A stretch of 64,000 bases of DNA from an uncultured Alphaproteobacteria bacterium. GTDB taxonomy: Bacteria > Pseudomonadota > Alphaproteobacteria > RF32 > CAG-239. Within the stretch, counting starts at the first letter, position 1. Each line of letters opens with the position of its first letter. Positions 8,025 through 36,602 of this stretch are shown here, piece by piece. The DNA lies in the NCBI GenBank assembly GCA_944391715.1, contig CALXUP010000006.1, positions 1,895 to 65,894 on the forward strand, written 5' to 3'. The translations under genes and the position numbers were made by a program. The notes below the pieces were generated by a model. The model made no database searches. It was not told where the DNA came from and saw only the letters and a list, made by a program, of their open reading frames with translations.

Positions 8025-8071
8025 TTTTCCACACTTGTTTTTATTATAATTTCCCTCTGGTTAAAACTTGA

Positions 8072-8796: not shown

Positions 8797-8815
8797 GCTT
8801 TTTCTCCTCAAAAAA

Positions 8816-8834
8816 AGCGGGCTATGCGCCCGCT
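8816..8834 (-). terminator. rho-independent terminator (hairpin + T-run on minus strand)
   Basis: agcgggc-tatg-gcccgct stem-loop, followed on the minus strand by TTTTTTT. It overlaps the last codons of 8822..9202. Confidence 0.5.
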
Positions 8835-11235: not shown

Positions 11236-11586
11236 TTACTCCGTTACTTCCGGGGTGATACGAAAAACCGCAACCTTGTTTACATCGCCGGGATATACCG
11301 TATGGATATCGCCGGTTTTTAACTTTATCTGGATATCGGTTTTGTAATCACCGGGTGTGATATTGGTATCGGCAGGCAAAAGTTTCAGCCGCACTTTGCC
11401 GCCCGAGACATCAAAAATCTCACCGGACTTGCTAAACAAAACTTTTTCTTCATTATTCCTGACCGTCATTTTAACGGTACAATCCGTCAAATCCCACGGC
11501 TTGTCGTCCGTTCGGAACTGCAGCACGATATCAAAACTGTCGCCTTTGCGAACAATTATCATATTGGGCAAAATCACTCCTGCCAT
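11236..11586 (-). CDS. hypothetical phage tail/baseplate protein
   Basis: 116 aa between the tail-collar and tail-fibre genes. No recognisable motif. Confidence 0.4.
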   Translation of the reverse strand: MAGVILPNMIIVRKGDSFDIVLQFRTDDKPWDLTDCTVKMTVRNNEEKVLFSKSGEIFDVSGGKVRLKLLPADTNITPGDYKTDIQIKLKTGDIHTVYPGDVNKVAVFRITPEVTE

Positions 11587-11587
11587 T

Positions 11588-12382
11588 TTAGTCCTCCTTT
11601 GCTTTAATAAAGTAGTTTACGGCCTGGTTAACCGGCGTAACATGGCCCGATTTGCCGTAAATCGCAGAAGAGCGCGCGGCATCAAAAGACACTGGTACGC
11701 GTCCGGTGCCATCCCAACCACCACCGGCGCTGAACTGGATTTTATTATTGACGCCGGAATCAATCTTCAATGCTCCGGAATAAGCATCCGGTCCACCATC
11801 CCATTTGGCCTGAGCCAGCTGTGCCGAACCGGTAATATTCGGCAGACCTTCTTCCTGCGTGGTATAAACGTCTTCGGCAGAATTACCGCCCAAACCGCGC
11901 AGAAACTTGCCGCGATAATCCGGAATATTAAAAGTCGTCACGCCGTCACCGGCACCGAAATTTGTTCCGACAAGCTCAAACAAGTCGGCATAATCCGTCC
12001 GGCTGACGGCCTGTCCGTCGCATAAAAGCCAGTTTCCGTGATTGGCCGTCTGCAAAGAGGCTTTGATATCGCCTAAGTTCATATTATCGTTCAGGATATC
12101 TTTGATTTCCGTTTTCAGCTCATCGAGCTTGTCCAGCACCTGTTTGCGGTTGACGGCATCATAATCCAGTGCGCCGTTGGCCAGGTTTTTTATTTGAAAA
12201 TTGCCGGCGTCGATATTACCGCGCATTGCAACGCGACCGTCTCGCAAAAAGGTCTGCGACAACCCTTCGGCAAGGTTATTGTCTTCTTCATCATGGTGGT
12301 CGGTTACAATATCAATGTCATTTATCCGGTCGTCTTCCCAACTGTGAATCCGGGTAAAATTTCCTTCACTGTCAAAAGGCAT
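11588..12382 (-). CDS. phage tail-collar-domain protein (short tail fibre-like)
   Basis: 264 aa. Contains the Phage_tail_collar-type motif LLCDGQAVSRTDYADLFELVGTNFGAGDGVTTFNIPDYRGKFLRG. GLPNITG motif. Confidence 0.75.
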   Translation of the reverse strand: MPFDSEGNFTRIHSWEDDRINDIDIVTDHHDEEDNNLAEGLSQTFLRDGRVAMRGNIDAGNFQIKNLANGALDYDAVNRKQVLDKLDELKTEIKDILNDNMNLGDIKASLQTANHGNWLLCDGQAVSRTDYADLFELVGTNFGAGDGVTTFNIPDYRGKFLRGLGGNSAEDVYTTQEEGLPNITGSAQLAQAKWDGGPDAYSGALKIDSGVNNKIQFSAGGGWDGTGRVPVSFDAARSSAIYGKSGHVTPVNQAVNYFIKAKED

Positions 12383-14601: not shown

Positions 14602-15351
14602 TTATTCCATTCTTAATCTGTTGATTCTTGGAATTAGGCCTCTATAGTTTGGTCTTTTTTGTTTGGCCTCTTCAATTCTTTTTTCTAGAACATAATTATT
14701 AATCAAAGCAACTGTATTTTCATCAATATAATTTAAACTATTTATTGTTTGACTCCCCAAAATACCGTCTTCACTTACAGTATTATGACTATAAAGATTA
14801 ATCCCTTCTTGAAGCCATTTTGTAATATCCTTCGGACTATGATTGACATAGCTATCAAACATTGTTTCCGCCAACTTTTCATTTTGAATTTCATTTATTC
14901 GATATGCATCGTAGTAATCGTTTTTATAAATGATATCAATATGATGTTGAGTTAAATCTTTTATATCGTTAGGAAATGTCTCTCTATAGTGCGGATGAGC
15001 CCTTAAAAAACGATTTAACGTCGGCTGTATAATTCCAGTATGCGTCCTTTGATCTATTTTCGCTAAGTTATCTTCATATCCTATCCCTTCAACTTCTGGG
15101 CTCTTTAAATTTCTAACAAATTTTTCAAAACGAGAAGGAAAATATTCAGTGTTTCTTCTCTCTTGTGGTATGTATGATATATTTTGTTCTTGATATAATG
15201 ACTGTCCCCAGGCCGGTGTCGGTTCAATGTAAGATTGTTCATTTTTCCCGAATAGTTCAAAATAATTTACCTGCCGATCTTTGTTAAAATTGTTCTCAAT
15301 CGGCATTGGCTCATATTTACCACCAAGCAGTTTTCCGATGCTTTTACTCAT
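14602..15351 (-). CDS. GH108-family muramidase with C-terminal PG_binding_3-like domain (endolysin or virion-associated lysin) carrying a 70-aa N-terminal extension
   Basis: 249 aa. Residues ~75-235 follow the GH108/PG_binding_3 pattern: EVEGIGYEDN...THTGIIQPTL (cf. EGGYxxDPxDPGGxTxxGIT), IIYKNDYYDAYRINEI (cf. IYxxxYWD), MFDSYVNHSPKDITKWLQ (cf. FDxAVNxGxxxAxKxLQ), DGILGSQTINSLNYI (cf. DGxxGxxTxxAL). The first 11 aa are identical to the needle-like protein. Confidence 0.6.
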   Translation of the reverse strand: MSKSIGKLLGGKYEPMPIENNFNKDRQVNYFELFGKNEQSYIEPTPAWGQSLYQEQNISYIPQERRNTEYFPSRFEKFVRNLKSPEVEGIGYEDNLAKIDQRTHTGIIQPTLNRFLRAHPHYRETFPNDIKDLTQHHIDIIYKNDYYDAYRINEIQNEKLAETMFDSYVNHSPKDITKWLQEGINLYSHNTVSEDGILGSQTINSLNYIDENTVALINNYVLEKRIEEAKQKRPNYRGLIPRINRLRME

Positions 15352-15880: not shown

Positions 15881-17440
15881 TTACAAGATACCGCTGCCGG
15901 ACTCGTAACGAAAACCGGTATCATACCATTCAATCAGGTTTCCCCTGGTTTTGGTCTGAAAAACAAGGCTGATTTTGAAGCCGGTTGCCGAACAGCCAAT
16001 CCACTGGCTGCGGATTTTTCCTTTCAGCGTTGCCCATTTGGTGCCGATCGGATTGTCCAGGCTGCTCCAGGCCGCAGTGTTCCATTTGGTCACACCGGAA
16101 TAACCGATATTTTCGGCATAGGCCTTATCTTTGTCATCAAAATCCACATTGGCATAAACAACCAACGCATATTTGGTGCTTGACTTTGTACGCGGATTAA
16201 TCATTTGAATTTTCTTCAAATTTCCATTACCGAGATTTGTATAGGCCTGAGCTATTTTGCCAAAGATATGGACTTTATTGTCCGAATAGCCTTCGTCAAA
16301 CAGATAGACGCCGTCTTCCCCGCCGAAATACAGGCGCCCCTGAAACAGCCCCCAGCACAAGGCGCGGATATTGGTAAAACGGCACCAGGCGCCGGTATTG
16401 GTATTGATAACGTGCTGTTCAAACTGCTGGTTGACCGGAACGTTAAACAAAGCATATCCGCCGCGGCCGTAGATAATCCCCTGCCAGCCCTCTTTTCCCT
16501 TGTTGTTTCTGGTTCTGTCCAGCACCAAGCCCCTGATTTTATCGGAAAAGGCAATCTGAGACGCATTGGCCTGTTCCAGCGGAAGCGCCTTTGACAGCGG
16601 AATATAACCGTCTTCCGAAATAATGACAACATCTCCCTGATAAGGCAAAAGGCAGCGATAGCCTATCGGACGGCTCATCCGAAAAACGCCTTTCAACTCC
16701 CAATCGCCGGCATCTCCGGGATCCGAACCGCGATAAACGGCCGCTTCGCCTTCCGACGTGATAAAAACCGTCAGATCGTCAATTCCCTGCCCGCCGTCCT
16801 GTGTCCAGGAGGCGATTGCCATAAGTTCTCCGCCGTCGCGAAAAATTGTTGAAAGGTCAAATTTGACCAAGGTTCCCTGCACTTCTCCCACACCCTCGGA
16901 ATACCAGGCATTGAGCGTGCCTTTCTCGACAAAGAAAAGCCGCTGGTGCGACGTACAAACGTTAATCAGCCGCTGCGGCAGCAAATTGGTGCCGGAAAAA
17001 GAGGCGTCTTCAAAATGTTCGTCGCCGTTGTCATCAACATAAAACGTCTGCGGCTTGTCATATCCGTTGACCAGCAGCAGACGATTTTTGAACTGGCAAT
17101 ACTGCCAGCGCCCTTCGCCGAAATCTTTTTTATAATCCTTTATGGCAGCCTTGGAAGAAATATTATAAACCGTGGAACCGGCAAAAGCCAAAAAGCGGTT
17201 TTCATCGGGCAATTTGTATTCCGCCAGCGTCCGGACTTTTCCATCCAGCGCCGCATAACGGACATAACCGCGGCGCAAAGCAACTTTGGTATCCAGCGGG
17301 AGATAATTGTCCATGACGACGGCATCGGTTTCTGACATCAAATCCAGGCTGTCGCGGGCGTTTAATCCGCCAATCGGGCTGGGCAGCGTGTAGTTGACCG
17401 ATTTGGCGCTGCGGTTAATTGTTCTTTGCTGCATTGACAT
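15881..17440 (-). CDS. large phage virion/tail protein (P22 gp10-like position)
   Basis: ~519 aa from MSMQQRTINRSAKSVNYTLPSPIGGLNARD with an aggag RBS. The longer ORF-track N-terminus lacks an RBS and overlaps the upstream gene. Assigned by position after the 237-aa protein. Confidence 0.5.
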   Translation of the reverse strand: MSMQQRTINRSAKSVNYTLPSPIGGLNARDSLDLMSETDAVVMDNYLPLDTKVALRRGYVRYAALDGKVRTLAEYKLPDENRFLAFAGSTVYNISSKAAIKDYKKDFGEGRWQYCQFKNRLLLVNGYDKPQTFYVDDNGDEHFEDASFSGTNLLPQRLINVCTSHQRLFFVEKGTLNAWYSEGVGEVQGTLVKFDLSTIFRDGGELMAIASWTQDGGQGIDDLTVFITSEGEAAVYRGSDPGDAGDWELKGVFRMSRPIGYRCLLPYQGDVVIISEDGYIPLSKALPLEQANASQIAFSDKIRGLVLDRTRNNKGKEGWQGIIYGRGGYALFNVPVNQQFEQHVINTNTGAWCRFTNIRALCWGLFQGRLYFGGEDGVYLFDEGYSDNKVHIFGKIAQAYTNLGNGNLKKIQMINPRTKSSTKYALVVYANVDFDDKDKAYAENIGYSGVTKWNTAAWSSLDNPIGTKWATLKGKIRSQWIGCSATGFKISLVFQTKTRGNLIEWYDTGFRYESGSGIL

Positions 17441-18128
17441 ATACTCCTTCTGCCGCCGGATTAAAAACCATACCGGCAAGGTTAATATCGCGGGAGGCCA
17501 GGCCGCTGCCGAATTTGGCTTTGACTTCGCGCTCGTATTCGTTAAATTCTTCTTCATACGGCATACCGTTGCGCCGGTTCCAGCGCCAGACAATGCCTTT
17601 TTTGACCAGAAATTCATCAAAAACAGGAACATCGGTATTTTTAGTCAGTTCGGATTTTTCCTCGTAGCCGTTTGCCGCATCAAACACAATGTTTGACGAG
17701 CGATACTGAAAAACAATCTTAATCCCGTCGGGCGGCGGCGTCAGAAATTTTATCATTCCGTTTTGGATTTTGAACTTCAGACCGGCATCGGGGCAGTTGA
17801 AATATTTTTCACGCATCCAATCCTGCGGGGTGATGGCGCCGATAACTTTTTCCGCGCTGTCTTTGATATAGACCGTATTATTCAATATAGAATAAAAATC
17901 GGGGCAAAACTGTTTGATAAGATAAGAACTACGGCCGCCGGAAGTGCGCAAAACGCCCTCCTTGGTCAGTTCCTGCCAATCGCCATAGCGCAACAGGCTG
18001 TCCAAAGTATCTTTGGCAACACTTAAAAATACAGCCTCCTGTTGAGAATCTTCATTAAACAAGTCTTCCGGCTTTTGAGCCGCAACAAGGCTTGCCGCCT
18101 CACGGCAGATTTCAAGCATATTCTTCAT
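17415..18128 (-). CDS. hypothetical phage virion protein
   Basis: 237 aa, GC-normal, within the morphogenesis operon. No motif recognised. Confidence 0.45.
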   Translation of the reverse strand: MKNMLEICREAASLVAAQKPEDLFNEDSQQEAVFLSVAKDTLDSLLRYGDWQELTKEGVLRTSGGRSSYLIKQFCPDFYSILNNTVYIKDSAEKVIGAITPQDWMREKYFNCPDAGLKFKIQNGMIKFLTPPPDGIKIVFQYRSSNIVFDAANGYEEKSELTKNTDVPVFDEFLVKKGIVWRWNRRNGMPYEEEFNEYEREVKAKFGSGLASRDINLAGMVFNPAAEGVYVNAAKNN

Positions 18129-18424
18129 GTTTTCTCCTTATTGGTTGTTATTTAATAAAAAAAGAACACCTGTTCAGGCTTGAACAGATGCTCGTTATAC
18201 AAAAAAACGCCGATATTACGGCGTAAGCTATTTTCTTTAGTTAAATTTTACTGATAATTTGTTTTTTATAAAAATTTAACTGCTACTTTCAAAAAAGACT
18301 TACAGTAAAAATAATTGTCCAATATAACATATAAAAAAATAGACTTAATGAAAATATATATCCAATGATTATTAATGTAAAATTTAAATAAACTAAAAAC
18401 TTATTCAAAGATCATTTCCTTTTA

Positions 18425-18640
18425 TTATAATTCTGACTTTATAACGGTGCAAAAAGTTATACAATAAATATAACCAAATAGAAGAATGCTTAATAGCAAT
18501 ATTCTAATAATGTATTTCCAATGACGAAAATAATTTATTGCTTTTATTTTATCAAAAAATTTAATAAGTAAACCTGAAGAATCTGTATCTTTAATACTAG
18601 ATTCTTCAAGTCGTTTTTGTTCTTTTTTTGTTTTTCTCAT
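18425..18640 (-). CDS. small tail-anchored membrane protein, KTKKEQ family (member 1)
   Basis: MRKTKKEQKRLEESS...AINYFRHWKYIIRILLLSILLFGYIYCITF. Basic N-terminus, C-terminal TM. AT-rich. Confidence 0.45.
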   Translation of the reverse strand: MRKTKKEQKRLEESSIKDTDSSGLLIKFFDKIKAINYFRHWKYIIRILLLSILLFGYIYCITFCTVIKSEL

Positions 18641-18644
18641 ATTA

Positions 18645-18920
18645 TCAAATATCCTTAACTGTATCAGCAAAAAGAAATACTAATATTAAAAGTTCAATGT
18701 ATGTCAGAAATAATGCAATTTCTACATTTTCTTGTTTTAAGAGCGACAATTTTTTCCCGAACAAAATGCATAAAAAACACCCTGACAGAAAAAATAATAA
18801 AGCTATACAAAGCCAATCCAAAAATAAATTTTCTTTTTGAACACCGATTATTCCCATAAAAAAGACAGGAACCGTCATTGTTAACAACATTGCCAACTGA
18901 TGAAAAAATTGTTTTATCAT
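18645..18920 (-). CDS. small multi-TM membrane protein (family 3, member 1)
   Basis: 91 aa. The C-terminus LLKQENVEIALFLTYIELLILVFLF is similar to that of 20704..20961. Confidence 0.45.
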   Translation of the reverse strand: MIKQFFHQLAMLLTMTVPVFFMGIIGVQKENLFLDWLCIALLFFLSGCFLCILFGKKLSLLKQENVEIALFLTYIELLILVFLFADTVKDI

Positions 18921-18921
18921 T

Positions 18922-19212
18922 TTACATCCCTCTCATAAGCGATGCGATTATTGGCAATCCAATAACCAAGGCAATAAAAAACAAAATCCAATCTATATAC
19001 AGAGCATATTGTATTATCTTGCGGTAAGGAATACCTAACGTGATATTAAAGAAGGCCAGAAATGCTAAGACAAATAAAATAATCTGTAATGCTATAAAAA
19101 CATATGGGGCATAATAACCTGAAAAACCTAACATTTCGCCTACTATAGACAAGGGCGCAATTGCAACCCATGCTGCGTAAACCCTGATAAAATTTTGTAT
19201 CCGTTCTTTCAT
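18922..19212 (-). CDS. small multi-TM membrane protein, MKERIQNFIRV family (member 1)
   Basis: 96 aa. The N-terminus MKERIQNFIRVYAAW is nearly identical to that of 20992..21270. Confidence 0.5.
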   Translation of the reverse strand: MKERIQNFIRVYAAWVAIAPLSIVGEMLGFSGYYAPYVFIALQIILFVLAFLAFFNITLGIPYRKIIQYALYIDWILFFIALVIGLPIIASLMRGM

Positions 19213-19223
19213 TCTCTTTTCCT

Positions 19224-19352
19224 TAAGAAATCATTTTGAGCAATAAACCAAACCATATTCCTCCTAAAACAAACATAGAGATAAGAAACGTCGGCACTAT
19301 TGCTGCATATAAAACAACTAAAATAACAAACTGAAAATACTTATGTTTCATC
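19224..19352 (-). CDS. 42-aa hydrophobic peptide, translationally coupled (TGATG) to the upstream gene
   Basis: MKHKYFQFVILVVLYAAIVPTFLISMFVLGGIWFGLLLKMIS. Start overlaps the stop of 19352..19500. Confidence 0.3.
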
Positions 19353-19500
19353 AGATTAGCCCCAAAATGATATTACCCCAAAGCAGAAGACTGAATAAAA
19401 ACATCCACAAAAGCCAAATAAAGTGCTTTTTATAATCAATATTATCTACCAAGTTATTAACTTCAGATAGTTTATCTTTCAATTTTTGATTTTTCTTCAT
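19352..19500 (-). CDS. small tail-anchored membrane protein, IDYKKH family (short member)
   Basis: MKKNQKLKDKLSEVNNLVDNIDYKKHFIWLLWMFLFSLLLWGNIILGLI. ATGA overlap with the upstream gene. Shares the NIDYKKHF motif with 20045..20233 and 20428..20640. Confidence 0.4.
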
Positions 19501-19664
19501 AACAGAAACTCCATTACCTGCATTTCTATTTTAGTTAAAATAACGAAGCCTATAATAAAGATAGAACTCGTCATAAAAAACACAGCCAGAGGAGCAAGAA
19601 ATAAGTATCCTGCCCCAATCATAATTAATTGTATAAAAGAAGACACTGTTTTTAATTTTGACAT
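19497..19664 (-). CDS. 55-aa 2-TM membrane peptide, translationally coupled
   Basis: MSKLKTVSSFIQLIMIGAGYLFLAPLAVFFMTSSIFIIGFVILTKIEMQVMEFLL. Stop overlaps the ATG of the next gene (ATGA). Confidence 0.3.
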   Translation of the reverse strand: MSKLKTVSSFIQLIMIGAGYLFLAPLAVFFMTSSIFIIGFVILTKIEMQVMEFLL

Positions 19665-19673
19665 TTTCGAACC

Positions 19674-19889
19674 TTACCAATCTAATGAAGAAAAAAAGAA
19701 ACACACTGCAAATATAAATACAAAGAACAATAAGATGTCTAATAAAAATAATTTCCAGAGTCTTTCACCTTGCTTTTTGTAATCAAGCTTATTAACTTTT
19801 TCTATCAGCTTAGACCAGCAGTTAGAAGAAGTTAAAAATTTTTCATTAACTTCTTCCGGACACATTTGTTCTTTTTTTGTTTTCCTCAT
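19674..19889 (-). CDS. small tail-anchored membrane protein, KTKKEQ family (member 2)
   Basis: RBS aagga + ATG giving MRKTKKEQMCPEEVNEKF...KLDYKKQGERLWKLFLLDILLFFVFIFAVCFFF. The longer ORF-track N-terminus is hydrophobic and lacks an RBS. Confidence 0.45.
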   Translation of the reverse strand: MRKTKKEQMCPEEVNEKFLTSSNCWSKLIEKVNKLDYKKQGERLWKLFLLDILLFFVFIFAVCFFFSSLDW

Positions 19890-20044
19890 ATTAAATCCTT
19901 CCCGTCCAATCATTCTTACATATTTAATATTCCGTTTGTTACCATTGAGGCCATAGCTGCAAAATACATAAAAAATATAATTGAAGAGATATAACCAATT
20001 AACAATAAAATAAATTTTATAATCACACTCATAATCATCACTTT

Positions 20045-20233
20045 TCAAAGTATATATAAAAAGGTACCAATTGAATAAATAGCCAAAATTATTCCAAGGA
20101 TAAAAATTACTTTAATAATTTTCCAATGTTTTTTATAATCGATACTATTAATGAAATTATAAAAGCGGGAGAAAGCTGTTGTTTGCACGACAACTTCTCC
20201 CTCTTTCTTTTGTTCTTTTTTTGTTTTCACCAT
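20045..20233 (-). CDS. small tail-anchored membrane protein, KTKKEQ family (member 3)
   Basis: MVKTKKEQKKEGEVVVQTTAFSRFYNFINSIDYKKHWK + TM. About 80 bp of DNA (20150-20230) is identical to 20555-20640. Confidence 0.5.
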   Translation of the reverse strand: MVKTKKEQKKEGEVVVQTTAFSRFYNFINSIDYKKHWKIIKVIFILGIILAIYSIGTFLYIL

Positions 20234-20427
20234 ATTATCAAATATCCTTTATTTTTCAAATTTTATTCTTTTTTTTATTTTCAAAAGATACAATCATACA
20301 ATAAAACAGTTAATGACACTAACAAAAAAAGAGTTAAAGGAAATAATATGATATAAGAAAACGACAACAAAAAGAAGCGCATGAGCAAGAAGTATGTTTT
20401 TGAATTTTTCATATATATTCCTTTTTG

Positions 20428-20640
20428 TTAACTTAACCCATCAAAAGCATTTCCTGTCATAACAACAAAAGTTATTGTTAGAACGATGAAAAGAGTTATG
20501 TCTGCCAAAATCAACCAGCAAACATATTTAAAGTGTTTTTTATAATCGATGTTATTAATAAAATTATAAAAGCGGGAGAAAGCTGTTGTTTGCACGACAA
20601 CTTCTCCCTCTTTCTTTTGTTCTTTTTTTGTTTTCATCAT
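20428..20640 (-). CDS. small tail-anchored membrane protein, KTKKEQ family (member 4)
   Basis: MMKTKKEQKKEGEVVVQTTAFSRFYNFINNIDYKKHFKY + TM. Its first 35 aa are nearly identical to member 3. Confidence 0.5.
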   Translation of the reverse strand: MMKTKKEQKKEGEVVVQTTAFSRFYNFINNIDYKKHFKYVCWLILADITLFIVLTITFVVMTGNAFDGLS

Positions 20641-20703
20641 ATCATCAAATATCCTTTATTTTTCAGATACTTTGACAATATTAGATTTTTTTATATTTGT
20701 CTA

Positions 20704-20961
20704 CTAAAAAGGTACAAGGGCACCTAAAATAAATATTTCAGGAAACAAGAGGAAAAGTGCTAACTCTGTGTATTCTTGTTTGACATACGGAAGAGAAACC
20801 CCCACCAGCACTAAGAAAATGCTTATTGCCCATATCCAGCCTAAAATGACGGCCAAAAACATTATCGTTCCTATTCCCCCAAAAAGACCAATGAATAACA
20901 AAAAAAATAACGAGGGAAACATACCACACAAAAACATTAAATTCCAAAAACGTTCTTTCAT
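20704..20961 (-). CDS. small multi-TM membrane protein (family 3, member 2; MKER-like start)
   Basis: 85 aa. MKERFWNLMF... C-terminus YVKQEYTELALFLLFPEIFIL resembles that of 18645..18920. Confidence 0.45.
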   Translation of the reverse strand: MKERFWNLMFLCGMFPSLFFLLFIGLFGGIGTIMFLAVILGWIWAISIFLVLVGVSLPYVKQEYTELALFLLFPEIFILGALVPF

Positions 20962-20991
20962 TATCTTTTCTCTTTCTATTTTGCCTGAATA

Positions 20992-21270
20992 TCATTTCAA
21001 CATCATATTGTTCAACATTTCGATCCCAAATATTATAGTATCAACAACTATCCCCCAACGCACAATTTGAGCATAAGGAATTTTGAATGTTATTTTGAAG
21101 AATGCGAAAATTGCTAACACTAAAGCTATGGGAATGGATAAAAAAGGTGCTCCCCAAACTATTACAGCCCACTCATATTCTATTACCCACCGAAGCATAA
21201 AAAATAGAAAAATATCTACAACCATAAAGGCTGCAAATACTCTGATGAAATTTTGTATCCGTTCTTTCAT
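20992..21270 (-). CDS. small multi-TM membrane protein, MKERIQNFIRV family (member 2)
   Basis: 92 aa. MKERIQNFIRVFAAFMVVD... is a paralogue of 18922..19212. Confidence 0.5.
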   Translation of the reverse strand: MKERIQNFIRVFAAFMVVDIFLFFMLRWVIEYEWAVIVWGAPFLSIPIALVLAIFAFFKITFKIPYAQIVRWGIVVDTIIFGIEMLNNMMLK

Positions 21271-21334
21271 TTATAAGCTATCCTTTCATATTTTGAAAGG
21301 ATAGCTTATATTTTTTATTTTTTCAACTTAAATT

Positions 21335-26160: not shown

Positions 26161-26350
26161 ATTATATTGTTCTTAGATTGTTCTGAGAGACCAGAAAGTG
26201 GTTGGTCACATATAAGAGTAATTTTATATTAGAGGATAATGGAACACGCGCCCATCCAGAGCAATTTAGAAAAGCCTGAATATGACGATATTCTTGTTTT
26301 TCCAGAGCCGGGATATGACGATATCCCGGCTCTGTTTTTTATTCCGTCTC
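26161..26350. repeat. direct repeat R1 flanking the secreted-protein moron (contains terminator-like palindromes)
   Basis: Shares with 27090-27250 the blocks ttgttct(t/c)agattgttctgag, gcgcg..ccatccag.gcaatttagaaaagcc and the perfect palindrome gagccgggatatgacgatatcccggctc. Confidence 0.55.
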
Positions 26351-26995
26351 TATCCAAAAATTTTCAGAAGTGACCGGCGTAAACTCTTTTTTATCCAAAA
26401 AGAAAGTTCTATTATACACTTTCCAATCAGCTCTCATATCATCACCGTCCCAATTATAATGGATATCAAGCAACGGATTTGACAGATGAGTTAAATCAAA
26501 TTGTACGGAAGTTATCATTCTGCCATTATTGAGGCTTACTGCTTCCAGCGCATCAATAATGACTTTGTTATTCATTTTAACGGTCAGGTAAAATTGCTGA
26601 TAAATACCAGCGCTCCCTTCACCGGAAAGAAATTGATATTTATCTCCTATTTTATAATTTTTTTTCGGATTAAGCGCGTTTATCTGTACCTCAAATATCC
26701 TATTATCAATTTTGCAGGAAGCATTATAGCTCTTTTGCCACAATATTTTGTCATTATTATCAAGCTTATAAAGCGCCTGTAAATTATATAATCCGTATTT
26801 TTGAATATAATCCGCAGATTGTGTCAGTAATTTTTCCTGCAGGTCTTCACTGGTACGTGGATGTTCTACCGTCATATACAGGCTTTTTAGTTCCGGCCGG
26901 CACTGAATGCGCAAAAAATCATTCCAGAAATCTGCCTTGGCAGAATTGCAGCATAATATTCCAACAAGTCCTATTAAGACAACATATTTTTTCAT
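26339..26995 (-). CDS. secreted protein (signal peptide), AT-rich moron
   Basis: RBS aaggagag + ATG. MKKYVVLIGLVGILCCNSAKA then a hydrophilic N/K/Y-rich domain of ~195 aa. Confidence 0.55.
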   Translation of the reverse strand: MKKYVVLIGLVGILCCNSAKADFWNDFLRIQCRPELKSLYMTVEHPRTSEDLQEKLLTQSADYIQKYGLYNLQALYKLDNNDKILWQKSYNASCKIDNRIFEVQINALNPKKNYKIGDKYQFLSGEGSAGIYQQFYLTVKMNNKVIIDALEAVSLNNGRMITSVQFDLTHLSNPLLDIHYNWDGDDMRADWKVYNRTFFLDKKEFTPVTSENFWIETE

Positions 26996-27089
26996 GCTCT
27001 CTCCTTTGATAATAATAGTAATTATAATAATTGAACACAATAATTTTACAAGCAATAATTTAATCTTTCGTGCTTGACTTTCTTAAGAC

Positions 27090-27301: not shown

Positions 27302-29221
27302 TCAGAATTCTTTTACAAATCCGGAAGAGATATTTCCGGGGTTGTCAGAGAAAGGCGCCAAAGCGGCATTTTTCTCCGGCATTTTTTCAAGCTGGGCGGT
27401 TTTCAACCTTGCCTGCATTTCCATTTCTTTATTGGTCATATAGAGTTTGTTTTGCTCAACCCACTCTTTTAACTGCAATTCGCGGGCTTTTAAGTTGTTT
27501 TTCTCCCGTTCCAGCTGATATTGCGCCGCGGCTTTTTCCCGCTCCAGAGTCAGAGCCTCGTTCGGCTTTTGCGGCAGAGTTTCGTCCGGCTTATTCAGCT
27601 CCCGTTCAATATCGTTAAAAACTTTTTCAACCGTTGCCGTAAACTGGCGGGATTTCGGCATTGTTACCACAACAGACATTATCATCTGGCGGTACAACGG
27701 CAACAGCAGCGGCTGGCTTGATACGGTTTGAAAAGCTTTTGCAATCAGCTCATTTATGGTGTTTATGCCTTCCAGCGTTTTTGCGGCTTCCTGCGCCTGC
27801 TGAAAAGCAACGTCGGTTTCCACACCCAGCACCATACCGCGCAAGTTGTCGGTTTTTAACAGCCGGACGGCATCTTTGGCCAGCGCCGTATTTTGCCGTT
27901 CTTCCGGCGGCAAAAATCCCAGCAGCGTTTCTTCCGAAAAACAACGGCAGATAATTTCCGCCTTAATCCTGAACACATCCCCGATAAAGCGCTGCATATC
28001 ATTTTGGCGATCCTGATTGCGCAAAGTGCCGAAATTGGTCTTTTCACGGACGGCCGTTGCCGTATCGCCGGGATTGGAGCTACCGCGCATAATATCCGAT
28101 ACGCCGGTTACATCAAAAATCTTGGCAATAATATCCTGTCTTCTGGCCGCCAGTTGTTCCAGAGCCGTTACATACTGCTCAACCGGAACAAAGTCTATAA
28201 TCCCGCGAATGCCGCCATTGTCTTTGAGTTTTTGAAAATCATTGAGCGATACAAGCGTTATGTCCTTATTCAGGATGCTCTTTAACTCGGGAAAAGAATT
28301 GTCATAACAGCCGGAGACTTTCAGCGCTTTCATCGTCAAGCGCATCCGGTTGTTGATGCCGTCCAGCTCAGAAAGCATTTCTTTAATCATCGAATAGTCC
28401 GGCGTCGGGATAATGCTGTTATTGGTCATGGTGGCAAAAACCGGTTTCGGACACGGGAAAAAGCCTTTCAGCCCGAAAGGATCGTTTGCGACTTTTAAAA
28501 ATCCGTTTTTATATTCTTTACAGAGCCAATAGACTTTTCGCGCCGTCTTGTCCCAGACTTCATAAATACAAACGTCTTTTTTGGCATAGTCTTTTTCATC
28601 GGGGCGGATTATAAACGGCGCCAGATGTTCGCCGAACAATTCAACCGCTTCCGTCTTGCCCATATGAATCCTTTTGGCAATCCAGGCTGCGTCTTCCCAA
28701 ATGCCGACTCTATCACAATCGGCAATAAAATCGGCCGGATCGACATAAACGGTTTCTACCCTTTCTCCGACTTTGACCTCAATTTCTTTTTCGGGATTTT
28801 CGCTGTCCGGCAAGCTCCGGAACTCCGGAATATACTGCTCCCAGACAAGCCCCATGCCTGATATCAGAAAATCGTTGCGGGCATATTTTAATACGCTGTC
28901 AAAATCAAATTGTTCCATATTCCAGGCCAGTGCCTTTTCCAAAATCCGGCAAGCCAGTGTTTCTGCCGGATCGGCGTTTTTGTTGCGGCGTTCAATGTAG
29001 GGCTTGGGCTGCTTGAAATATAAAAAGGGTTTTAACGTTTCGACCGTCGACCAAAAGATATTGTAACGGCCGGCACGGGCTATGTCAGAAGTTTGGTCTT
29101 TATAATAATTTCTGGTTTCGGCCACCAGGCGGTGGTATTTTTCATAATGCCGTTCCGCCGCGGACAGCCGCTCTATCCAGGTTTCGACTTCGTTTTTATA
29201 TACGGGGATTATATTATTCAT
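27302..29221 (-). CDS. portal protein
   Basis: 639 aa. Sits immediately after the terminase/GroES-like genes and before the scaffold and capsid genes. Size and acidic-helical C-terminus are typical of podovirus portals. Confidence 0.65.
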   Translation of the reverse strand: MNNIIPVYKNEVETWIERLSAAERHYEKYHRLVAETRNYYKDQTSDIARAGRYNIFWSTVETLKPFLYFKQPKPYIERRNKNADPAETLACRILEKALAWNMEQFDFDSVLKYARNDFLISGMGLVWEQYIPEFRSLPDSENPEKEIEVKVGERVETVYVDPADFIADCDRVGIWEDAAWIAKRIHMGKTEAVELFGEHLAPFIIRPDEKDYAKKDVCIYEVWDKTARKVYWLCKEYKNGFLKVANDPFGLKGFFPCPKPVFATMTNNSIIPTPDYSMIKEMLSELDGINNRMRLTMKALKVSGCYDNSFPELKSILNKDITLVSLNDFQKLKDNGGIRGIIDFVPVEQYVTALEQLAARRQDIIAKIFDVTGVSDIMRGSSNPGDTATAVREKTNFGTLRNQDRQNDMQRFIGDVFRIKAEIICRCFSEETLLGFLPPEERQNTALAKDAVRLLKTDNLRGMVLGVETDVAFQQAQEAAKTLEGINTINELIAKAFQTVSSQPLLLPLYRQMIMSVVVTMPKSRQFTATVEKVFNDIERELNKPDETLPQKPNEALTLEREKAAAQYQLEREKNNLKARELQLKEWVEQNKLYMTNKEMEMQARLKTAQLEKMPEKNAALAPFSDNPGNISSGFVKEF

Positions 29222-29474
29222 CTGTTATTACTCCTAAAATGCTGTTTTCCCGAACGACAACGACATCAGAATCATATGTCGGCAATTCATCAAAAACATG
29301 AAACAAAACTTTGTCTCCCGGTTTGACGCCGGAAACCTGCGGCCCGACGCTTTCGACCGTTCCAATCGTCCGCCGGTGCTCAAAATCGTCGGTCAGGATT
29401 ATTCCGCCGGTTGTTTGTTTTTCGACCGGTTTCAGGCGGATAAAAACCCGGTCCATGACGGCATGTGCAATCAT
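29214..29474 (-). CDS. phage-encoded GroES/Cpn10-like co-chaperonin
   Basis: 86 aa from MIAHAVMDRVFIRLKPVEKQTTGGIILTDDFEHRRTIGTVESVGPQVSGVKPGDKVLFHVFDELPTYDSDVVVVRENSILGVITDE. This aligns with the GroES pattern (DRVLVKR..EEKTAGGIVLP...GxVVAVGPG...VKVGDKVLF......ILxxDIL.VI). RBS ggagaaac. Confidence 0.6.
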   Translation of the reverse strand: MIAHAVMDRVFIRLKPVEKQTTGGIILTDDFEHRRTIGTVESVGPQVSGVKPGDKVLFHVFDELPTYDSDVVVVRENSILGVITDE

Positions 29475-29480
29475 GAAGTT

Positions 29481-29575
29481 TCTCCTTATCTTGTTTGGGG
29501 TTATAAAAAAATCCCGCCGGGAAAATTGCACAGCGGGATAAGCAAAAGTATTGAAGCTATTTTTCGGGAGCTTTA
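29481..29575. repeat. direct repeat D1 (copy of the terminase-downstream terminator+RBS region)
   Basis: ~95 bp nearly identical to 30906-30999: tctccttatcttgtttggggttataaaaaaatcccgccgggaaaattgcacagcgggataagcaaaagtattgaagctattttt. Confidence 0.6.
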
Positions 29576-29599
29576 CATAAACGGCGGACAATAAGCTGT

Positions 29600-30094
29600 T
29601 TAATGCTCATTTTCTGCCAAAATAATCATTATTATAAAGGCCAGCAAAGGCAGGCTTAGTACCAGACTTCCCATTCCGGCATTATATAATATGTTCCAAG
29701 TAACAGAAATTTGATTACTGATTGTTTTCATCATCAAAATGGCATAATAAGCAATCAGCCAAAGCAGATATTCAACGACCATAAAACGGCCGGTTTTTGA
29801 GATTTTCCAGAGTTTCGTTCCGATCTCCCGCAACAGCCAATATAACGGTATTGCCAAAAGGTAAATTCCGAAAACGGCACCGGCCGTTAGGCGGCAAGGC
29901 ACTCCGAGCCAATACCAATTGAACCAGCTTTGAAAGTTTATTTTTCCGACTATATCATCTTGCTGCCATAGGTATATGTCACATTGTGCTCCTTGCGTAT
30001 TATGGTTGATTACAACAGCGCCAATGCAAAAGATCAGACTTAAACAGACCATACTGGCAAAGATATATAAAAATTTTGGCCAAACACGAAACAT
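29600..30094 (-). CDS. 4-TM membrane protein, AT-rich moron
   Basis: 164 aa, very hydrophobic, AT-rich codon usage unlike the surrounding phage genes. Confidence 0.5.
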   Translation of the reverse strand: MFRVWPKFLYIFASMVCLSLIFCIGAVVINHNTQGAQCDIYLWQQDDIVGKINFQSWFNWYWLGVPCRLTAGAVFGIYLLAIPLYWLLREIGTKLWKISKTGRFMVVEYLLWLIAYYAILMMKTISNQISVTWNILYNAGMGSLVLSLPLLAFIIMIILAENEH

Positions 30095-30282
30095 TATTTT
30101 TGCTTTTTGTTATAAATATTATGACTTTCCTTAGAACTTTCTTTTCCTTTATTTACCATTATAATATTTTCCATATTTATTAAAATATTGTAACTTTATA
30201 AAAGGATGGTTGCTTTTATTATTTGACACTAAATTTAAAGTTTTTTATTATTAAGTACAAGATATAAAAGACGGGTTCTTCC

Positions 30283-30867
30283 ATGTTAAGTGTATTAAAA
30301 GACGCTATTGTTTTATTTCTGAGAAAAATAGACATTTTTATTGTATTTATTACACCGGTATTTTTAATAAATATTTTTCTCTTGCCCTCATCGATAAAAA
30401 TCCTGCTTAATGCCTTTGCTTATTGTATAACGTCTTTAAGTATATATCTTTATCTTTTGCATAACGATCTTTGTTTACGCTTTTTCTCTTTTCGGTTGTT
30501 TTTCTCTTATTTTTTGGCAGATTCTGCCATTGCCGCCGGTTATTTTATTTTGGTTTTTATTATTCAATTAATACCAATTTCCACAATCTGGCAGGTTTTA
30601 TGCGTCTATCTGCTAGGCTTATATTTTCTATGTCGCTTAAGTTTAATTCCGGCCTTGATTGCCGCTCAAAAAACGATATCGATACAAGATATTTTATTCA
30701 AAAACAAAAACAGTTATTTTCAATGGATGTCAGCGGCCACGGTTCTCTATCTTCCGTTTTTTCTGAGCAGGGTATTTATTCCTGAGGGAATTTCTCTTGC
30801 TTTTATAACATCATTACAAACTCCACTTTTATGTTGTTTTTATGTTTGTTATCTTAAAAAGCATTAA
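30283..30867 (+). CDS. polytopic membrane protein, AT-rich moron (divergent from 29600..30094)
   Basis: 194 aa, 5-6 TM, on the strand opposite the phage operon. Shares a 190 bp AT-rich intergenic region with its divergent partner. Confidence 0.5.
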   Translation: MLSVLKDAIVLFLRKIDIFIVFITPVFLINIFLLPSSIKILLNAFAYCITSLSIYLYLLHNDLCLRFFSFRLFFSYFLADSAIAAGYFILVFIIQLIPISTIWQVLCVYLLGLYFLCRLSLIPALIAAQKTISIQDILFKNKNSYFQWMSAATVLYLPFFLSRVFIPEGISLAFITSLQTPLLCCFYVCYLKKH

Positions 30868-30905
30868 TTAATTCCATATACTGTTTCATTTTGTGCATTT
30901 CCTTT

Positions 30906-30999
30906 CTCCTTATCTTGTTTGGGGTTATAAAAAAAATCCCGCCGGGAAATTGCACAGCGGGATAAGCAAAAGTATTGAAGCTATTTTTTGAGGGTTTTA
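30906..30999. repeat. direct repeat D2 (native terminator + RBS region immediately 3' of terL)
   Basis: Contains the hairpin atcccgctg..cggcgggat + T-run and RBS aaggagaaagg. See D1. Confidence 0.6.
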
Positions 31000-32346
31000 C
31001 CAGCCGGAATTATCTTTTTCACCAGCGGCGAGGGCAAACATTTCTTCTATTGAGACCTTGCCGTTGCCGTATAATTTCGGTTCACCGCAATCATAAACCG
31101 GTTCGGCAAAGGTTAATGCCAAAGCATCTCCTTTGTCCGGAGAGCGTCCAAGACGCTTTTTGACCTCATCTTTTTCTTCCATTTGCAACCTTCCTTTCCG
31201 GTCATATTTCTTATTGACCGCAGTTAAATCGTTAAACAGTTCTTCATCTTCGGGAAGCTGGACTGGCGGCTGAGATTTGAGCCACTGATTGACGCTGTCC
31301 CACATTTCGGCGCGCCGGTTGAAATAACGCTCTTCGTTAATTGCTTTTTCGCCAAAATAAATCCCGCGGATAATCTCCCCAAAACCGCGGTCTTTTAAAA
31401 TGTCATATACGCCGGCGCCCTGCCCACCGATATCCATAAAAATCCGGTACGGGCGGCATTCTTTGATAAAACGGGTTGCCAGATTGGCCACACCGACGTT
31501 GTCTTGTTTATAATAACTCTCAAAGCGGTAACACCACCGGCCTTTGCGAAAGCAAAAAGAAGTTGCGTCATCGCCGAATCTGGCAATATCCAATCCGATA
31601 ATCAGCGGCGAGGTACTCCCGTTCATTTTGGCTTCAAAAGCCCGGCGGACGTCGGTTCCGGAAATCAGCCTGGTATTGCTCTGCACGATCGGGGCGCCGA
31701 GCCAGATATGCGCATAGTCATCGGGTGAGTTTTTCCGGCATTTTTCGGCCTGATATTTGATTTCTTCCGGACAAAACGGGTTATCGTAATAATTGACGCA
31801 GCGGACAAGCGTTCTTTCATCGGGATTGGCGGCAACGGCCATCCACAAAGGATCGTTTTCTTCTTCACGGTTCATGGAAATCCAGATTTCGGAACCGTCT
31901 TTGCGAATCGTCGGCTCCAAAATCTCCCAGCTTTTTTTGCTGATGGTTTGCGCCTCTTCAATCCAGGCAATGTCCACACCTTCCAGGGATTTTATTTTCT
32001 GGCTGTCCTGATCGCGCAGGCCTTTGAAGATAAACTTTGTGCCGGTGATTGTGTTTTCTATTTTGGTTTCATAAATTTTATAATCGCCCAGAGAATAAAA
32101 AGAAATCCGGTCGCACAGAAGTTTGTGGACCGAATCTTTGATTGATTCCTGAATCTCCCTCAGGCAGGCGATAAAAAGCTTTTTCTGCCGCCCCAAAAAC
32201 AGCAGGCTGTCGGCAAAAGCATAAGATTTTCCGCCGGCACGTCCGCCGTAATAAAACTTAATCCGCTTTTTCTCGGTCATCAGCGGCGCAAACACCCGGG
32301 CCATCTCGGCACATTTGGTCTTGGGTTTGGCGTTTGTTTTTCTCAT
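30997..32346 (-). CDS. terL: terminase large subunit (PBSX/Terminase_3-like)
   Basis: 449 aa. Walker A-like YYGGRAGGKSYAFA, then GVDIAWIEEAQ (Walker B/coupling) and a nuclease C-terminus. The true start may be an internal Met (32304 or 32280) overlapping terS. Confidence 0.85.
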   Translation of the reverse strand: MRKTNAKPKTKCAEMARVFAPLMTEKKRIKFYYGGRAGGKSYAFADSLLFLGRQKKLFIACLREIQESIKDSVHKLLCDRISFYSLGDYKIYETKIENTITGTKFIFKGLRDQDSQKIKSLEGVDIAWIEEAQTISKKSWEILEPTIRKDGSEIWISMNREEENDPLWMAVAANPDERTLVRCVNYYDNPFCPEEIKYQAEKCRKNSPDDYAHIWLGAPIVQSNTRLISGTDVRRAFEAKMNGSTSPLIIGLDIARFGDDATSFCFRKGRWCYRFESYYKQDNVGVANLATRFIKECRPYRIFMDIGGQGAGVYDILKDRGFGEIIRGIYFGEKAINEERYFNRRAEMWDSVNQWLKSQPPVQLPEDEELFNDLTAVNKKYDRKGRLQMEEKDEVKKRLGRSPDKGDALALTFAEPVYDCGEPKLYGNGKVSIEEMFALAAGEKDNSGW

Positions 32347-33189: not shown

Positions 33190-33870
33190 TTATTTAAGTT
33201 TCTTTTTAATTGTCAGTGCATCTTCATTTATTTTATATCTAATTTTTTCTAATGCTTGTTTTATATTGTCTGCAGCAACTTTTCTCCATATATTTGTTTC
33301 ATTATACCCCCAATACATTGCAATAAAGTCGGAATTTACAACATTTTCTGTATATTTAGCAATTAACTCCTTTTTATTGTTCCATATTTCTACCTGTACT
33401 TCTAGGGATTGTGTTATTTCATTTACCGGAAAGCCTAAAATGTTAATTGTAAATAAGGAGAGCATAGAGGGTAATATATAAAAAATTGAGGTATCATTTC
33501 CCCGATACCCTAATTTCAGTGCAACATATCCCTTTTTCTCTCCATAAGGTGAAGAAATATTCTCTTTTACTTCTTTTTCAAAAATGTTTATAACATCGTT
33601 GACTCGTGCATCTTTATAAGACGTTCCATTTACTACGGTTGTTTGTGCCCATCCGGCCCAAGGATTTGCTCCGTATCCTGTACCATAATTATTAGCAATA
33701 CCTTGATAGCCCCCTGATGAATATACAGATTCTAAATTATTCATATCTACAACAGTGATTAACGCTGGCAATAAATTACTATTTGGTTTAATTTCTGGAT
33801 TAACATCATTATAACTTATTGATTTGCAAGCAGTTAGCATTATAAAAGATATTAGTAAAAACTTTTTCAT
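33190..33870 (-). CDS. lipoprotein, AT-rich moron
   Basis: RBS caggagaat + ATG. MKKFLLISFIMLTACKS with lipobox LTAC. ~226 aa, N/Y/G-rich. Confidence 0.6.
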   Translation of the reverse strand: MKKFLLISFIMLTACKSISYNDVNPEIKPNSNLLPALITVVDMNNLESVYSSGGYQGIANNYGTGYGANPWAGWAQTTVVNGTSYKDARVNDVINIFEKEVKENISSPYGEKKGYVALKLGYRGNDTSIFYILPSMLSLFTINILGFPVNEITQSLEVQVEIWNNKKELIAKYTENVVNSDFIAMYWGYNETNIWRKVAADNIKQALEKIRYKINEDALTIKKKLK

Positions 33871-34146
33871 AATATTCTCCTGACAAATTAACAAAAAACC
33901 ACCTTGATGAGAGGTGGCAGGAAGTTGAAAGCTATTTTCAGGAAATAGTGTAGTATATTTGTTAGATATAACGTATTTTACTACCTTCCTGCCATAAGGC
34001 AAAAAGGTAGTTTTTACATCTGCTCATGCAGAAAACCTGAAAAGGGGCTTTCAAACCCCGCATTGGTAATCAACCAATGCAAAAACTAAGCTATGCGAAA
34101 TGCCCCCGGAAGTCAAATAAAAAATGTTTTATAAAAATAGATATAA

Positions 34147-34900: not shown

Positions 34901-35536
34901 ATGAACAATATTAAAAATCTGCGCAAAATGCATCATAAAACCGTTACACAGCTTGCCGAGGCCGTTGGCGTTACCCAATCGACCATGACCAAAATCGAGA
35001 ACGGCAATATTTCCCTCAAAAGCGAAATGGCACAAAAAATTGCCGATTTGTTCGGTACAACGCTTGATAATGTCGTAAAATCCGAATTCGGACAGGTTTC
35101 GCCCTATGCATTCAGTCCGGCGGGCGTTTCGATGATTGAAATTATTGACGCGCGGGAATCCGTTGCCGAAAACAGTAATATCCTGACGCCGAAAGTTATC
35201 GGGCATCAGCTAGCAAATATTAATCTTTTTCCTCAACTTAAAAACATATCCCCCGATAAAATAAAGATTTTATCAATTTACGGAGACAGTATGCAGCCGA
35301 CAATCAATGACCAGGACGTTATCTGGGTGGATATCTCGGTTACCTCTCCGGAAAGCGACGGGCTTTATCTTTTCTGCATCCGGCAAGAGCTGCTGGTTAA
35401 GCGCATTCGCTTTGATATTTTTAACAATTCCGCGCTGATTTCTTCCGATAATCCGCTTTATCCGCCGCTGTCAGTCAATAATCCGGATCAGATAAAGGTG
35501 TGTGGAAAAGTAATTGCAGTTACGAAATTTATGTAA
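34901..35536 (+). CDS. cI: CI-like phage repressor (HTH_XRE N-terminus + S24 LexA-type peptidase C-terminus)
   Basis: 211 aa. The HTH region MNNIKNLRKMHHKTVTQLAEAVGVTQSTMTKIENGNISLKSEMAQKIADLFG is HTH_XRE-like. C-terminal S24 domain with a Ser in GDSMQPTI and a Lys in LVKRI. Confidence 0.8.
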   Translation: MNNIKNLRKMHHKTVTQLAEAVGVTQSTMTKIENGNISLKSEMAQKIADLFGTTLDNVVKSEFGQVSPYAFSPAGVSMIEIIDARESVAENSNILTPKVIGHQLANINLFPQLKNISPDKIKILSIYGDSMQPTINDQDVIWVDISVTSPESDGLYLFCIRQELLVKRIRFDIFNNSALISSDNPLYPPLSVNNPDQIKVCGKVIAVTKFM

Positions 35537-36516: not shown

Positions 36517-36602
36517 TGGTAGGGGTAGTCAGACTCGAACTGACACGGCCTGAGGCCACAAGATTTTGAGTCTAGCGCGTCTACCAGTTCCGCCATACCC
36601 CC
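36517..36602 (-). tRNA. tRNA-Leu (anticodon CAA)
   Basis: RNA: GGGGGUA-UG-GCGGAACUGGUAGACGC-G-CUAGA-CUCAAAA-UCUAG-long variable arm UGGGCCUCAGGCCGUG-UCAGUUCGAGUCUGAC-UACCCCU-A-CCA. The cloverleaf folds by eye with a 3-bp D stem and a long variable arm (class II). Anticodon loop CU-CAA-AA. Confidence 0.85.

Follow-up and report, generated by a model that had tools for sequence, protein, structure and literature searches.

The stretch of DNA analyzed here comprises 64,000 nucleotides of contig CALXUP010000006.1 (assembly GCA_944391715.1) from an uncultured Alphaproteobacteria bacterium. This whole stretch is called the window, and positions are window coordinates unless another locus is named. 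In its phage-like element, the gene for the large terminase, terL, is separated from a gene encoding a Cpn10/GroES-like protein by an insert that lies between two copies of a 98-nt intergenic repeat (IG). The phage genes of this region are all on the minus strand, and read in that direction the order is terL, IG copy B, insert, IG copy A, Cpn10 and portal. The assignments are firm for terL (30997-32346, 449 aa; Pfam Terminase_3, 2.5e-34; phrog_3717, 2e-50), the Cpn10/GroES-like gene (29214-29474, 86 aa; PF00166, 1.7e-12; phrog_3188) and the portal gene (27302-29221, 639 aa; phrog_12082, 1.5e-119). GC content is 0.21-0.39 in the insert, compared with 0.47-0.48 in the flanks. The insert is probably an eroded, hypervariable island of effector and partner genes, located between terL and the Cpn10-portal pair in prophage-like elements of uncultured gut Alphaproteobacteria.

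Two AT-rich, divergently transcribed open reading frames (ORFs) encoding membrane proteins are found in the insert. TM164 (29600-30094, minus strand, 164 aa) has four hydrophobic helices, the first two joined by a conserved, Cys-containing loop. TM194 (30283-30867, plus strand, 194 aa) is a polytopic protein with approximately six hydrophobic helices, and its gene is antisense to the late operon. The 188-bp spacer between the two genes has a GC content of 21%, and within it a sigma-70-like promoter match (TTGACA-17-TATTAT, 11 of 12 positions, a consensus match only) is present at 30223-30251 on the plus strand, 32 nt upstream of the TM194 ATG. No terminator was found for TM194.

The insert also holds the remains of two effector genes. 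Directly abutting the TM164 ATG are the last eight codons (NIYNKKQK) and the stop codon of an SLT-type effector gene (30095-30120, minus strand), identical to the 3′ end of the gene for a 267-aa SLT effector at L009. L-numbers denote related loci in other assemblies, each with its own coordinates, and P0015 is a further effector-bearing sequence. The adjoining AT-rich spacer (30121-30282, 21% GC) appears, from a comparison of L008 with L009, to have arrived together with TM194 and a segment encoding a MuF core. On the terL side, a 14-codon ORF, MHKMKQYMELINAF followed by a stop codon (30854-30898, minus strand), consists of the start codon and the last 13 codons, in frame, of a 287-aa MuF-like gene. 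The 3′ end of TM194 overlaps the 3′ end of this MuF-type gene by 14 nt wherever that end or its remnant exists.

The uninterrupted junction in related elements

When public assemblies were queried for the exact TerL and Cpn10 proteins, many near-identical contigs were recovered, and a terL scan of one genome per species returned 79 loci, nearly all in metagenome-assembled genomes (MAGs) of uncultured gut Alphaproteobacteria from humans and ruminants. In approximately 35 species-level relatives (terL 60-76% identical) the terL|Cpn10 junction is uninterrupted, with Cpn10 starting between -10 and +82 nt from the terL stop codon, and the insertion that an earlier reading made from the letters alone (the sequence-only reading) had placed at this junction is borne out by these relatives. 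In four of them (L021, L022, L057 and L062), a single hairpin, U-run and ribosome-binding site (RBS) occupies the uninterrupted junction. The island itself is confined to a clade in which terL is at least 92% identical. By this comparison, the ancestral state is evidently terL followed directly by Cpn10, with the window representing an insertion.

The genes around this junction show some further variation. Cpn10 overlaps the terL stop codon (a gap of -10) in many relatives, including L013-L020, L037, L050 and L078, and the position of the GroES-like gene immediately upstream of portal is conserved family-wide. In other relatives, among them L041 and L047, the Cpn10-portal pair is located 5-6 kb upstream of terL. 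A search of INPHARED returned one unannotated, 70%-identical contig only. This sole related record of the phage collection, L007 (MT835830.1; terL 73% identical), has an unrelated 579-aa ORF (7734-9473) between terL and Cpn10, for which no Pfam match was found.

Boundary repeats and their recombination

The two repeat copies, A (29479-29576) and B (30903-31000), are direct repeats of 98 nt with approximately 94% identity; they are distinguished by four substitutions, grouped toward the terL-proximal end, and by two single-base indels. No chance occurrence of a 33-nt core of the repeat would be expected in the window. On the minus strand, both copies open with G+TAA (the terL stop codon in copy B), followed by a 33-nt leader, a hairpin, a U-run and finally AAGGAGAAA, an RBS containing AAGGAG. 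The hairpin is G+C-rich, with 9 bp and a 10-nt loop, and is directly followed by seven or eight U residues (with U8 at 30929-30963 in copy B; with U7 at 29505-29539 in copy A). It was overlooked by a simple terminator scanner solely because its loop exceeds 8 nt. The RBS (30903-30911 in copy B) sits 4-7 nt ahead of an ATG in both copies, and in copy A this is the ATG of Cpn10, at 7 nt. No promoter match was found inside the repeat by a consensus scan. The 24 nt upstream of copy A were compared by eye with the 3′ end of terL, and the resemblance is too weak to call.

The sequence-only reading had described a repeat of about 95 bp whose copies each retain a terminator and an RBS around two AT-rich, divergent membrane-protein genes. 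Pairwise alignment confirms the repeat, including its non-structural leader, at the length and identity given above; the terminator-like hairpin, U-run and AAGGAG motif are present in both copies, both genes are there as claimed, and the positions given were correct to within 2-3 nt. It may be asked whether the repeat is an artefact of metagenome assembly, or a pair of terminators that evolved independently. Apart from the general risk that repeats pose in short-read assemblies, there is nothing to recommend the first, and more than 15 independent assemblies, which come from a range of samples and projects, share this architecture, on which ground an assembly artefact was rejected. Identity of this degree over 98 nt, leader included, argues against both, and this explanation can be given almost no weight.

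In every island-bearing locus, the module of hairpin, U-run and RBS is found after terL and again before Cpn10. Islands with multiple cassettes have internal IG copies, and three copies are present in L090, L087 and L107. In L010 and L095, the repetition includes the RBS and the 5′ 200-270 bp of the effector gene. The order of segments can also be permuted: a block consisting of a gene for a 168-aa secreted protein (X168) and the hairpin is upstream of the MuF-remnant block in L107 and downstream of it in L006 and L105, with 99.9% identity. In L006 and L090, the insertion point of X168 is precisely the 5′ base of the hairpin, and a leader deletion in copy B of L009 ends at the same base.

Within a genome, the two copies tend to share their variants. 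The hairpin loop is the same in both copies of each genome, being TGTGCAA in the window and L008 and TGCGCAA in L001-L003; the TerL protein of L001-L003 is identical to that of the window. In L010 and L095 the hairpin is very different, again in both copies, and copy B of L006 is 100% identical to copy A of the window. Together, the three-copy arrays, the permuted order and the homogenization within genomes argue for homologous recombination rather than transposition. The repeat is thus best read as a duplicated regulatory boundary that would provide homology for unequal recombination and gene conversion between related elements.

A different origin, by transposition with duplication of a target site, was also considered. 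No transposase or integrase gene was found between the repeats in the ORF list or by Pfam search, no terminal inverted repeats were found, and the repeat is 98 nt long, occurring three times in L087, L090 and L107; a transposon was rejected on these grounds. Target-site duplication is likewise not upheld, in view of the missing recombinase genes, the third copies in multi-cassette relatives and the homogenization of copies within genomes. The selective rationale for a boundary of this kind is obvious: Cpn10 is coupled to terL in relatives, and inserts must supply a new Cpn10 RBS. With a duplicated terminator-RBS module, accessory genes could be exchanged inside an essential late operon while the gene that follows is still translated.

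Effector alleles, partner genes and their loss

The gene that directly follows copy B in relatives is polymorphic. Conservation is limited to its initial 66 residues, 34 of which are invariant across six sequences, and the remainder is allele-specific; at least five different C-termini follow residue 66, none of which is left in the window. The alleles comprise a MuF core with a coiled coil (L008, MuF match at residues 78-128), an SLT domain detected by Pfam (L009, L090 and L091), a T6SS_VgrG3-like_C domain (L010, L038, L095-L097 and L107; Pfam 1e-32, PDB 4NOO/4NSO 1e-9), GH108 with PG_binding_3, also from Pfam (L012 and P0015), and a 139-aa form in L010 without a domain recognized by domain search. 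The variable part also differs in composition: its GC content is 0.28-0.37, against 0.39-0.48 up to residue 66. In L095 (7768-9408) and L096 (4853-6493), the island also includes a full-length flagellin gene of 546 aa with both the Flagellin_N and the Flagellin_C domain.

The 287-aa MuF-like gene, which carries a Phage_Mu_F/gp7 signature, lies between copy B and TM194 in L002-L005, L008, L100-L104 and approximately 20 similar places. In the intact allele, PF04233 matches only residues 78-128 and TIGR01641 matches residues 66-130; the 66-aa N-terminus alone has no MuF match, and a PDB sequence search found no relative of the MuF-type protein. The N-terminus does align to the corresponding region of the MuF-core proteins from the distant loci L059 and L073, where a single protein of 340-348 aa contains that region, the MuF core and a lysozyme/pesticin-like C-terminus without interruption. 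This contiguity identifies the 66 residues as the N-terminus native to a short MuF/gp7-like minor head protein, and the hydrolase alleles of the close clade are, on the evidence of their sequences, chimeras in which the MuF core was replaced. Only eight true clusters with the 66-aa N-terminus, along with two spurious repeat proteins, emerged when 1.84 billion representative proteins were searched exhaustively with HMMER, and a word-indexed protein search with the 66-aa profile found two fragments only. The N-terminal family is therefore small, and it is lineage-restricted.

A particular small neighbor, membrane or secreted, accompanies each type of allele. The MuF-type allele and TM194 are convergent, meeting at their 3′ ends, six loci have a secreted protein of 163-168 aa (X168) convergent with the VgrG3-type allele, and a 228-aa protein (X228) follows the GH108 allele. 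In L059, a convergent ORF for a secreted protein of 150 aa follows the MuF-core gene. The start of TM164 overlaps the stop codon of the SLT-type effector gene in five loci (L009, L087, L088, L090 and L091), and in this original context TM164 has no promoter of its own and is translationally coupled to the effector. A PDB sequence search with X168 gave no match, and the VgrG3 immunity protein in particular shows no similarity to it.

Replacement of one such segment by another can be followed directly. In L008, a 1.4-kb segment (9646-11045) containing the MuF core, TM194 and the spacer stands in place of the SLT domain segment of L009 (9619-10198), with a left junction at codon 66 and a right junction 26 nt before TM164. 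In L107, the order is IG, a VgrG3-type effector with X168, IG, a block of MuF remnant, TM194, SLT scar and TM164, and then IG and Cpn10. Further effector fragments with partners, whether paired or orphaned, occur in L087, L089, L090, L095, L096 and L107. Older partner genes and effector 3′ scars are thus retained downstream of a newer effector, as in sequential displacement; segments encoding a newer C-terminus and its partner have evidently displaced older ones and left the older partner genes behind.

The loss of the MuF-type gene from the window can be placed to the nucleotide. Alignment of the window with L002 breaks off at 11451 and begins again at 12260, and an 11-mer, GAAAGGAAATG (30896-30906, minus strand, located from the overlapping BLAST segments and by inspection), is common to both segments. 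In L002 it occurs twice, at 11441-11451 and 12260-12270, 819 bp apart. As both segments share the 11-mer, the window has evidently lost the MuF-like gene by an in-frame deletion of 819 bp between the two 11-bp repeats. The MuF-like protein of L002-L005 and L008 ends in RKEMHKMKQYMELINAF, directly before the stop codon. An identical deletion junction is found in seven other loci (L001, L006, L099 and L105-L108), which indicates a single event that would since have spread.

At least four independent deletions have affected the MuF-type gene, namely those of the window type, L090, L087 and L098. The three besides the window type (3270-3315 in L090, 4832-5095 in L087 and 970-1287 in L098) are internal and adjoin a TM194 homologue; one of them causes a frameshift, and the other two keep the reading frame. 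TM194 survives intact in the window type, L090 and L098 and is frameshifted in L087.

These observations bear on the claim of the sequence-only reading that the insert is a self-contained, two-gene membrane-protein moron that arrived as a unit and duplicated about 95 bp of its target. Morons, a concept from the lambdoid phages developed by Hendrix and colleagues, are additional genes of unusual base composition that separate two genes found side by side in relatives. An AT-rich insert of this description is found here, flanked by direct repeats at a junction that is uninterrupted in relatives; TM194 has its own promoter-like site, and the block of MuF remnant, TM194 and TM164 moves as one IG-flanked module in L006, L105 and L107. 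However, three genes lie between the repeats in most near-identical relatives, the 287-aa MuF-like gene among them, and in the window the scars of two different effector genes adjoin the membrane genes. Nor do the two share a history: TM164 travels with the SLT-type effector, being present without TM194 in L009, L088 and L091, and TM194 travels with the MuF-type allele. The repeat, at 98 bp, far exceeds known target duplications, and neither its third copies in L090, L087 and L107 nor the lack of a transposase or integrase suits such an arrival. A two-gene ancestor that later received the MuF gene is made unlikely by the in-frame 14-codon remnant and the 11-bp microhomology. A self-contained two-gene insertion of this kind is quite improbable and largely refuted by the comparison of relatives, and the insert looks instead like the residue of two successive effector cassettes rather than a single transcription unit.

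The eroded-island reading can be set out as a sequence of events, which taken as an evolutionary reconstruction is very probable. One or more cassettes would have entered at the junction, each opening with an IG module, and the last copy would re-supply the Cpn10 RBS. The SLT effector would have been displaced first, leaving its eight-codon scar, and the MuF-type gene would then have been removed by the 819-bp deletion, with TM194 and TM164 left stranded between two boundary copies. The boundary repeats may act as portable homology arms, by which cassettes could be gained, lost and shuffled through homologous recombination between related elements. For annotation, TM164 and TM194 would accordingly be described as stranded partner genes beside effector pseudogene scars, and not as a toxin/antitoxin pair.

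Possible functions and related systems

TM164 and TM194 have dN/dS values (ratios of nonsynonymous to synonymous substitution rates) of 0.10-0.26 against homologues that are 55-69% identical, with 0.12-0.26 for TM194 alone, and by this measure they are evidently real genes under purifying selection. Homologues are rare: among 5.8e9 proteins, TM194 has only four clusters and TM164 only five, all within this island. Neither protein has a match in Pfam, PHROG, PADLOC or NCBIfam, and AlphaFold2 models of TM164 and TM194 (mean pLDDT, the predicted local accuracy score, of 50 and 45) are too poor to use. TM164 homologues are frameshifted in L002, L004 and L101-L103, where they are called as 126 aa or uncalled; the window copy is intact.

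It may be that the effectors are packaged via their N-terminus and delivered with DNA. TM164 and TM194 would be expressed from the prophage, TM194 from its own promoter, and could neutralize or exclude cognate effectors or the virions of relatives, as orphan immunity or superinfection exclusion. Their allele-linked adjacency, their retention after effector loss, purifying selection and the sigma-70 match antisense to the late operon all point in this direction, and a membrane or periplasmic location would fit hydrolases that act in the periplasm. A role in immunity or exclusion for TM164 and TM194 is nevertheless a tentative proposal, plausible without reaching the probable. The sequence-only reading had likened the pair to a toxin/immunity or exclusion cassette; the immunity or exclusion part of that comparison is reasonable, but neither gene is toxin-like, and the candidate toxins are the lost effectors.

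Several points weigh against the island as a set of effectors with dedicated partners. The MuF-type allele resembles a regular short MuF head protein that ends in a coiled coil and is not an evident toxin, so a dedicated immunity partner such as TM194 is not obviously needed. The X168 family also occurs beside GH108-type cassettes, and pairings are thus not strictly one-to-one. TM164 is frameshifted in the commonest MuF-containing variant, that of L002, L004 and L101-L103 noted above, and the databases searched reveal no detectable homology of either membrane protein to known immunity or defense proteins. On the history, an exact-pattern search of metagenome_contigs and viral_contigs found no cassette-free terL-IG-Cpn10 arrangement, a result that is uninformative given that the lineage is nearly absent there. 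Immunity, exclusion, packaging and delivery are all inferred from sequence.

Some of these points suit a variant of the same history, in which TM164 and TM194 are generic lysogenic-conversion or hitch-hiking morons without a link to the effectors (for example, for envelope modification or exclusion of unrelated phages), their adjacency reflecting only the shared ancestry of the imported DNA. The promoter match and opposite orientation of TM194, the MuF-type allele without a recognizable toxin domain, unrelated cargo in the island such as the flagellin gene in L095 and L096, and other AT-rich moron slots in the same element are consistent with it. It is less easily reconciled with the overlap of the TM164 start with the SLT stop codon in five loci, with the recurrence of small secreted or membrane partners beside each hydrolase type, distant relatives included, or with the keeping of partners after effector loss, as in poly-immunity loci. 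On balance, this variant is rather unlikely.

The adjacency of peptidoglycan hydrolase genes and small multi-helix membrane proteins could also suggest a second lysis cassette, with the membrane proteins as holin-like lysis partners of the hydrolases. However, the hydrolases bear a head-protein N-terminus and belong to the packaging module, a number of partners are secreted and not membrane-bound, several are convergent, and the MuF-type allele is no hydrolase. A holin role was rejected on account of the separate lysis region of the element, which has a GH108 endolysin (14602-15351) and an amidase-like protein (15881-17632), and such a cassette is very improbable.

A bolder extension of the effector/partner reading would make the island a specificity module of particle-mediated antagonism or exclusion, in which particles of a compact element bring a head-packaged peptidoglycan hydrolase of a type changed through cassette exchange, lysogens accumulate membrane or periplasmic inhibitors of the incoming enzyme (TM194 and TM164 among them) and the terminator-RBS repeat is a dedicated recombination handle. 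As a whole this is speculative and must be regarded as unlikely. If true, superinfection exclusion or kin discrimination would here take the form of a "virion-lysin immunity". The pairs of SLT with TM164, VgrG3-like with X168 and MuF type with TM194 are testable.

The closest known parallel is found in the MuF polymorphic toxins of temperate phages, which have adjacent immunity genes (Jamet et al. 2017, PMC5576092) and for which immunity pairs and poly-immunity loci, as with Apk2 and Bxa, have been studied experimentally (PMC11699363). As in those systems, the gene lies in the terminase/portal head module of gut-microbiome prophages and joins a conserved N-terminal head part to variable enzymatic C-termini, and small adjacent ORFs, including extra or orphan ones, are candidate immunity genes. 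In the present island, however, the conserved part is only 66 aa long, and in most alleles the MuF core itself is replaced, not extended. The cargo consists of peptidoglycan hydrolases (SLT, GH108 and VgrG3-like) rather than nucleases, ADP-ribosyltransferases or alarmone synthetases, the slot is between terL and Cpn10-portal instead of the canonical place downstream of portal, the hosts are Alphaproteobacteria, and the window itself is without an effector. Phage MuF-type toxins are known mainly from Firmicutes and Bacteroidales, with cytoplasmic toxins, and cell-wall-degrading cargo in gut Alphaproteobacteria extends that range.

Sequential displacement of effectors in type VI secretion systems (T6SS), which produces orphan immunity arrays (Kirchberger et al. 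2017, as cited in PMC11699363), offers a second comparison. As that work is represented there, a new C-terminus and immunity module behind a conserved 5′ region pushes older immunity genes downstream, and one allele of the present island has the same VgrG3-type hydrolase domain. Set against that same account, the island has no T6SS, is in a phage head module, has duplicated terminator-RBS boundaries and carries immunity genes that are putative.

For the boundary itself, the PeSL regulatory cassettes of T4-type phages (Arbiol et al. 2010, PMC2839356) are the nearest analogue, in that short repeated modules with a terminator stem-loop flank non-essential ORFs and provide homology for insertion, deletion and replacement between close relatives. 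A repeated regulatory module at the boundaries of such indels and replacements is present here as well. PeSLs combine an early promoter with a stem-loop and occur in many dispersed copies in lytic myoviruses, whereas the IG module combines a stem-loop with an RBS, lacks a promoter and is found in two or three copies at one slot of a temperate-type element. Compared with the known theme of MuF polymorphic toxins and orphan immunity, what is new here is the 66-aa handle, the peptidoglycan-hydrolase cargo, the terL|Cpn10 slot, the alphaproteobacterial host and the terminator-RBS cassette boundaries. Nothing is categorically new, but the comparative series of intact, displaced, deleted and reordered cassettes is unusually clean and clear.

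The phage-like element as a whole spans approximately 8500-36600. A CI/LexA-type repressor gene (34901-35536, plus strand) is located about 2.5 kb from terS/terL, and a tRNA-Leu is present at 36517-36602; no integrase or replication gene was seen at either end of the element. In five species-level MAGs the element is beside the same host genes (epimerase, lactamase_B and CysS), with terL 92-100% and the host genes 82-99% identical, and it may be vertically inherited or resemble a gene transfer agent (GTA) rather than a free temperate phage. Other parts of the element are also AT-rich or variable. Amid the structural genes, a 3-kb region (18100-21300) has 28% GC and a strongly negative GC skew, and its only ORFs are small ones on the minus strand (124 aa at most). 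After portal, a variable slot (26339-27055, minus strand) has additional genes of 88/140 aa or a 426-aa gene in relatives. A further slot, between a DUF6456 gene and a 97-aa gene (33190-34002, minus strand), holds a 270-aa gene in the window and, in relatives, genes of 224 and 103 aa, a 216-aa gene or an acetyltransferase gene instead.

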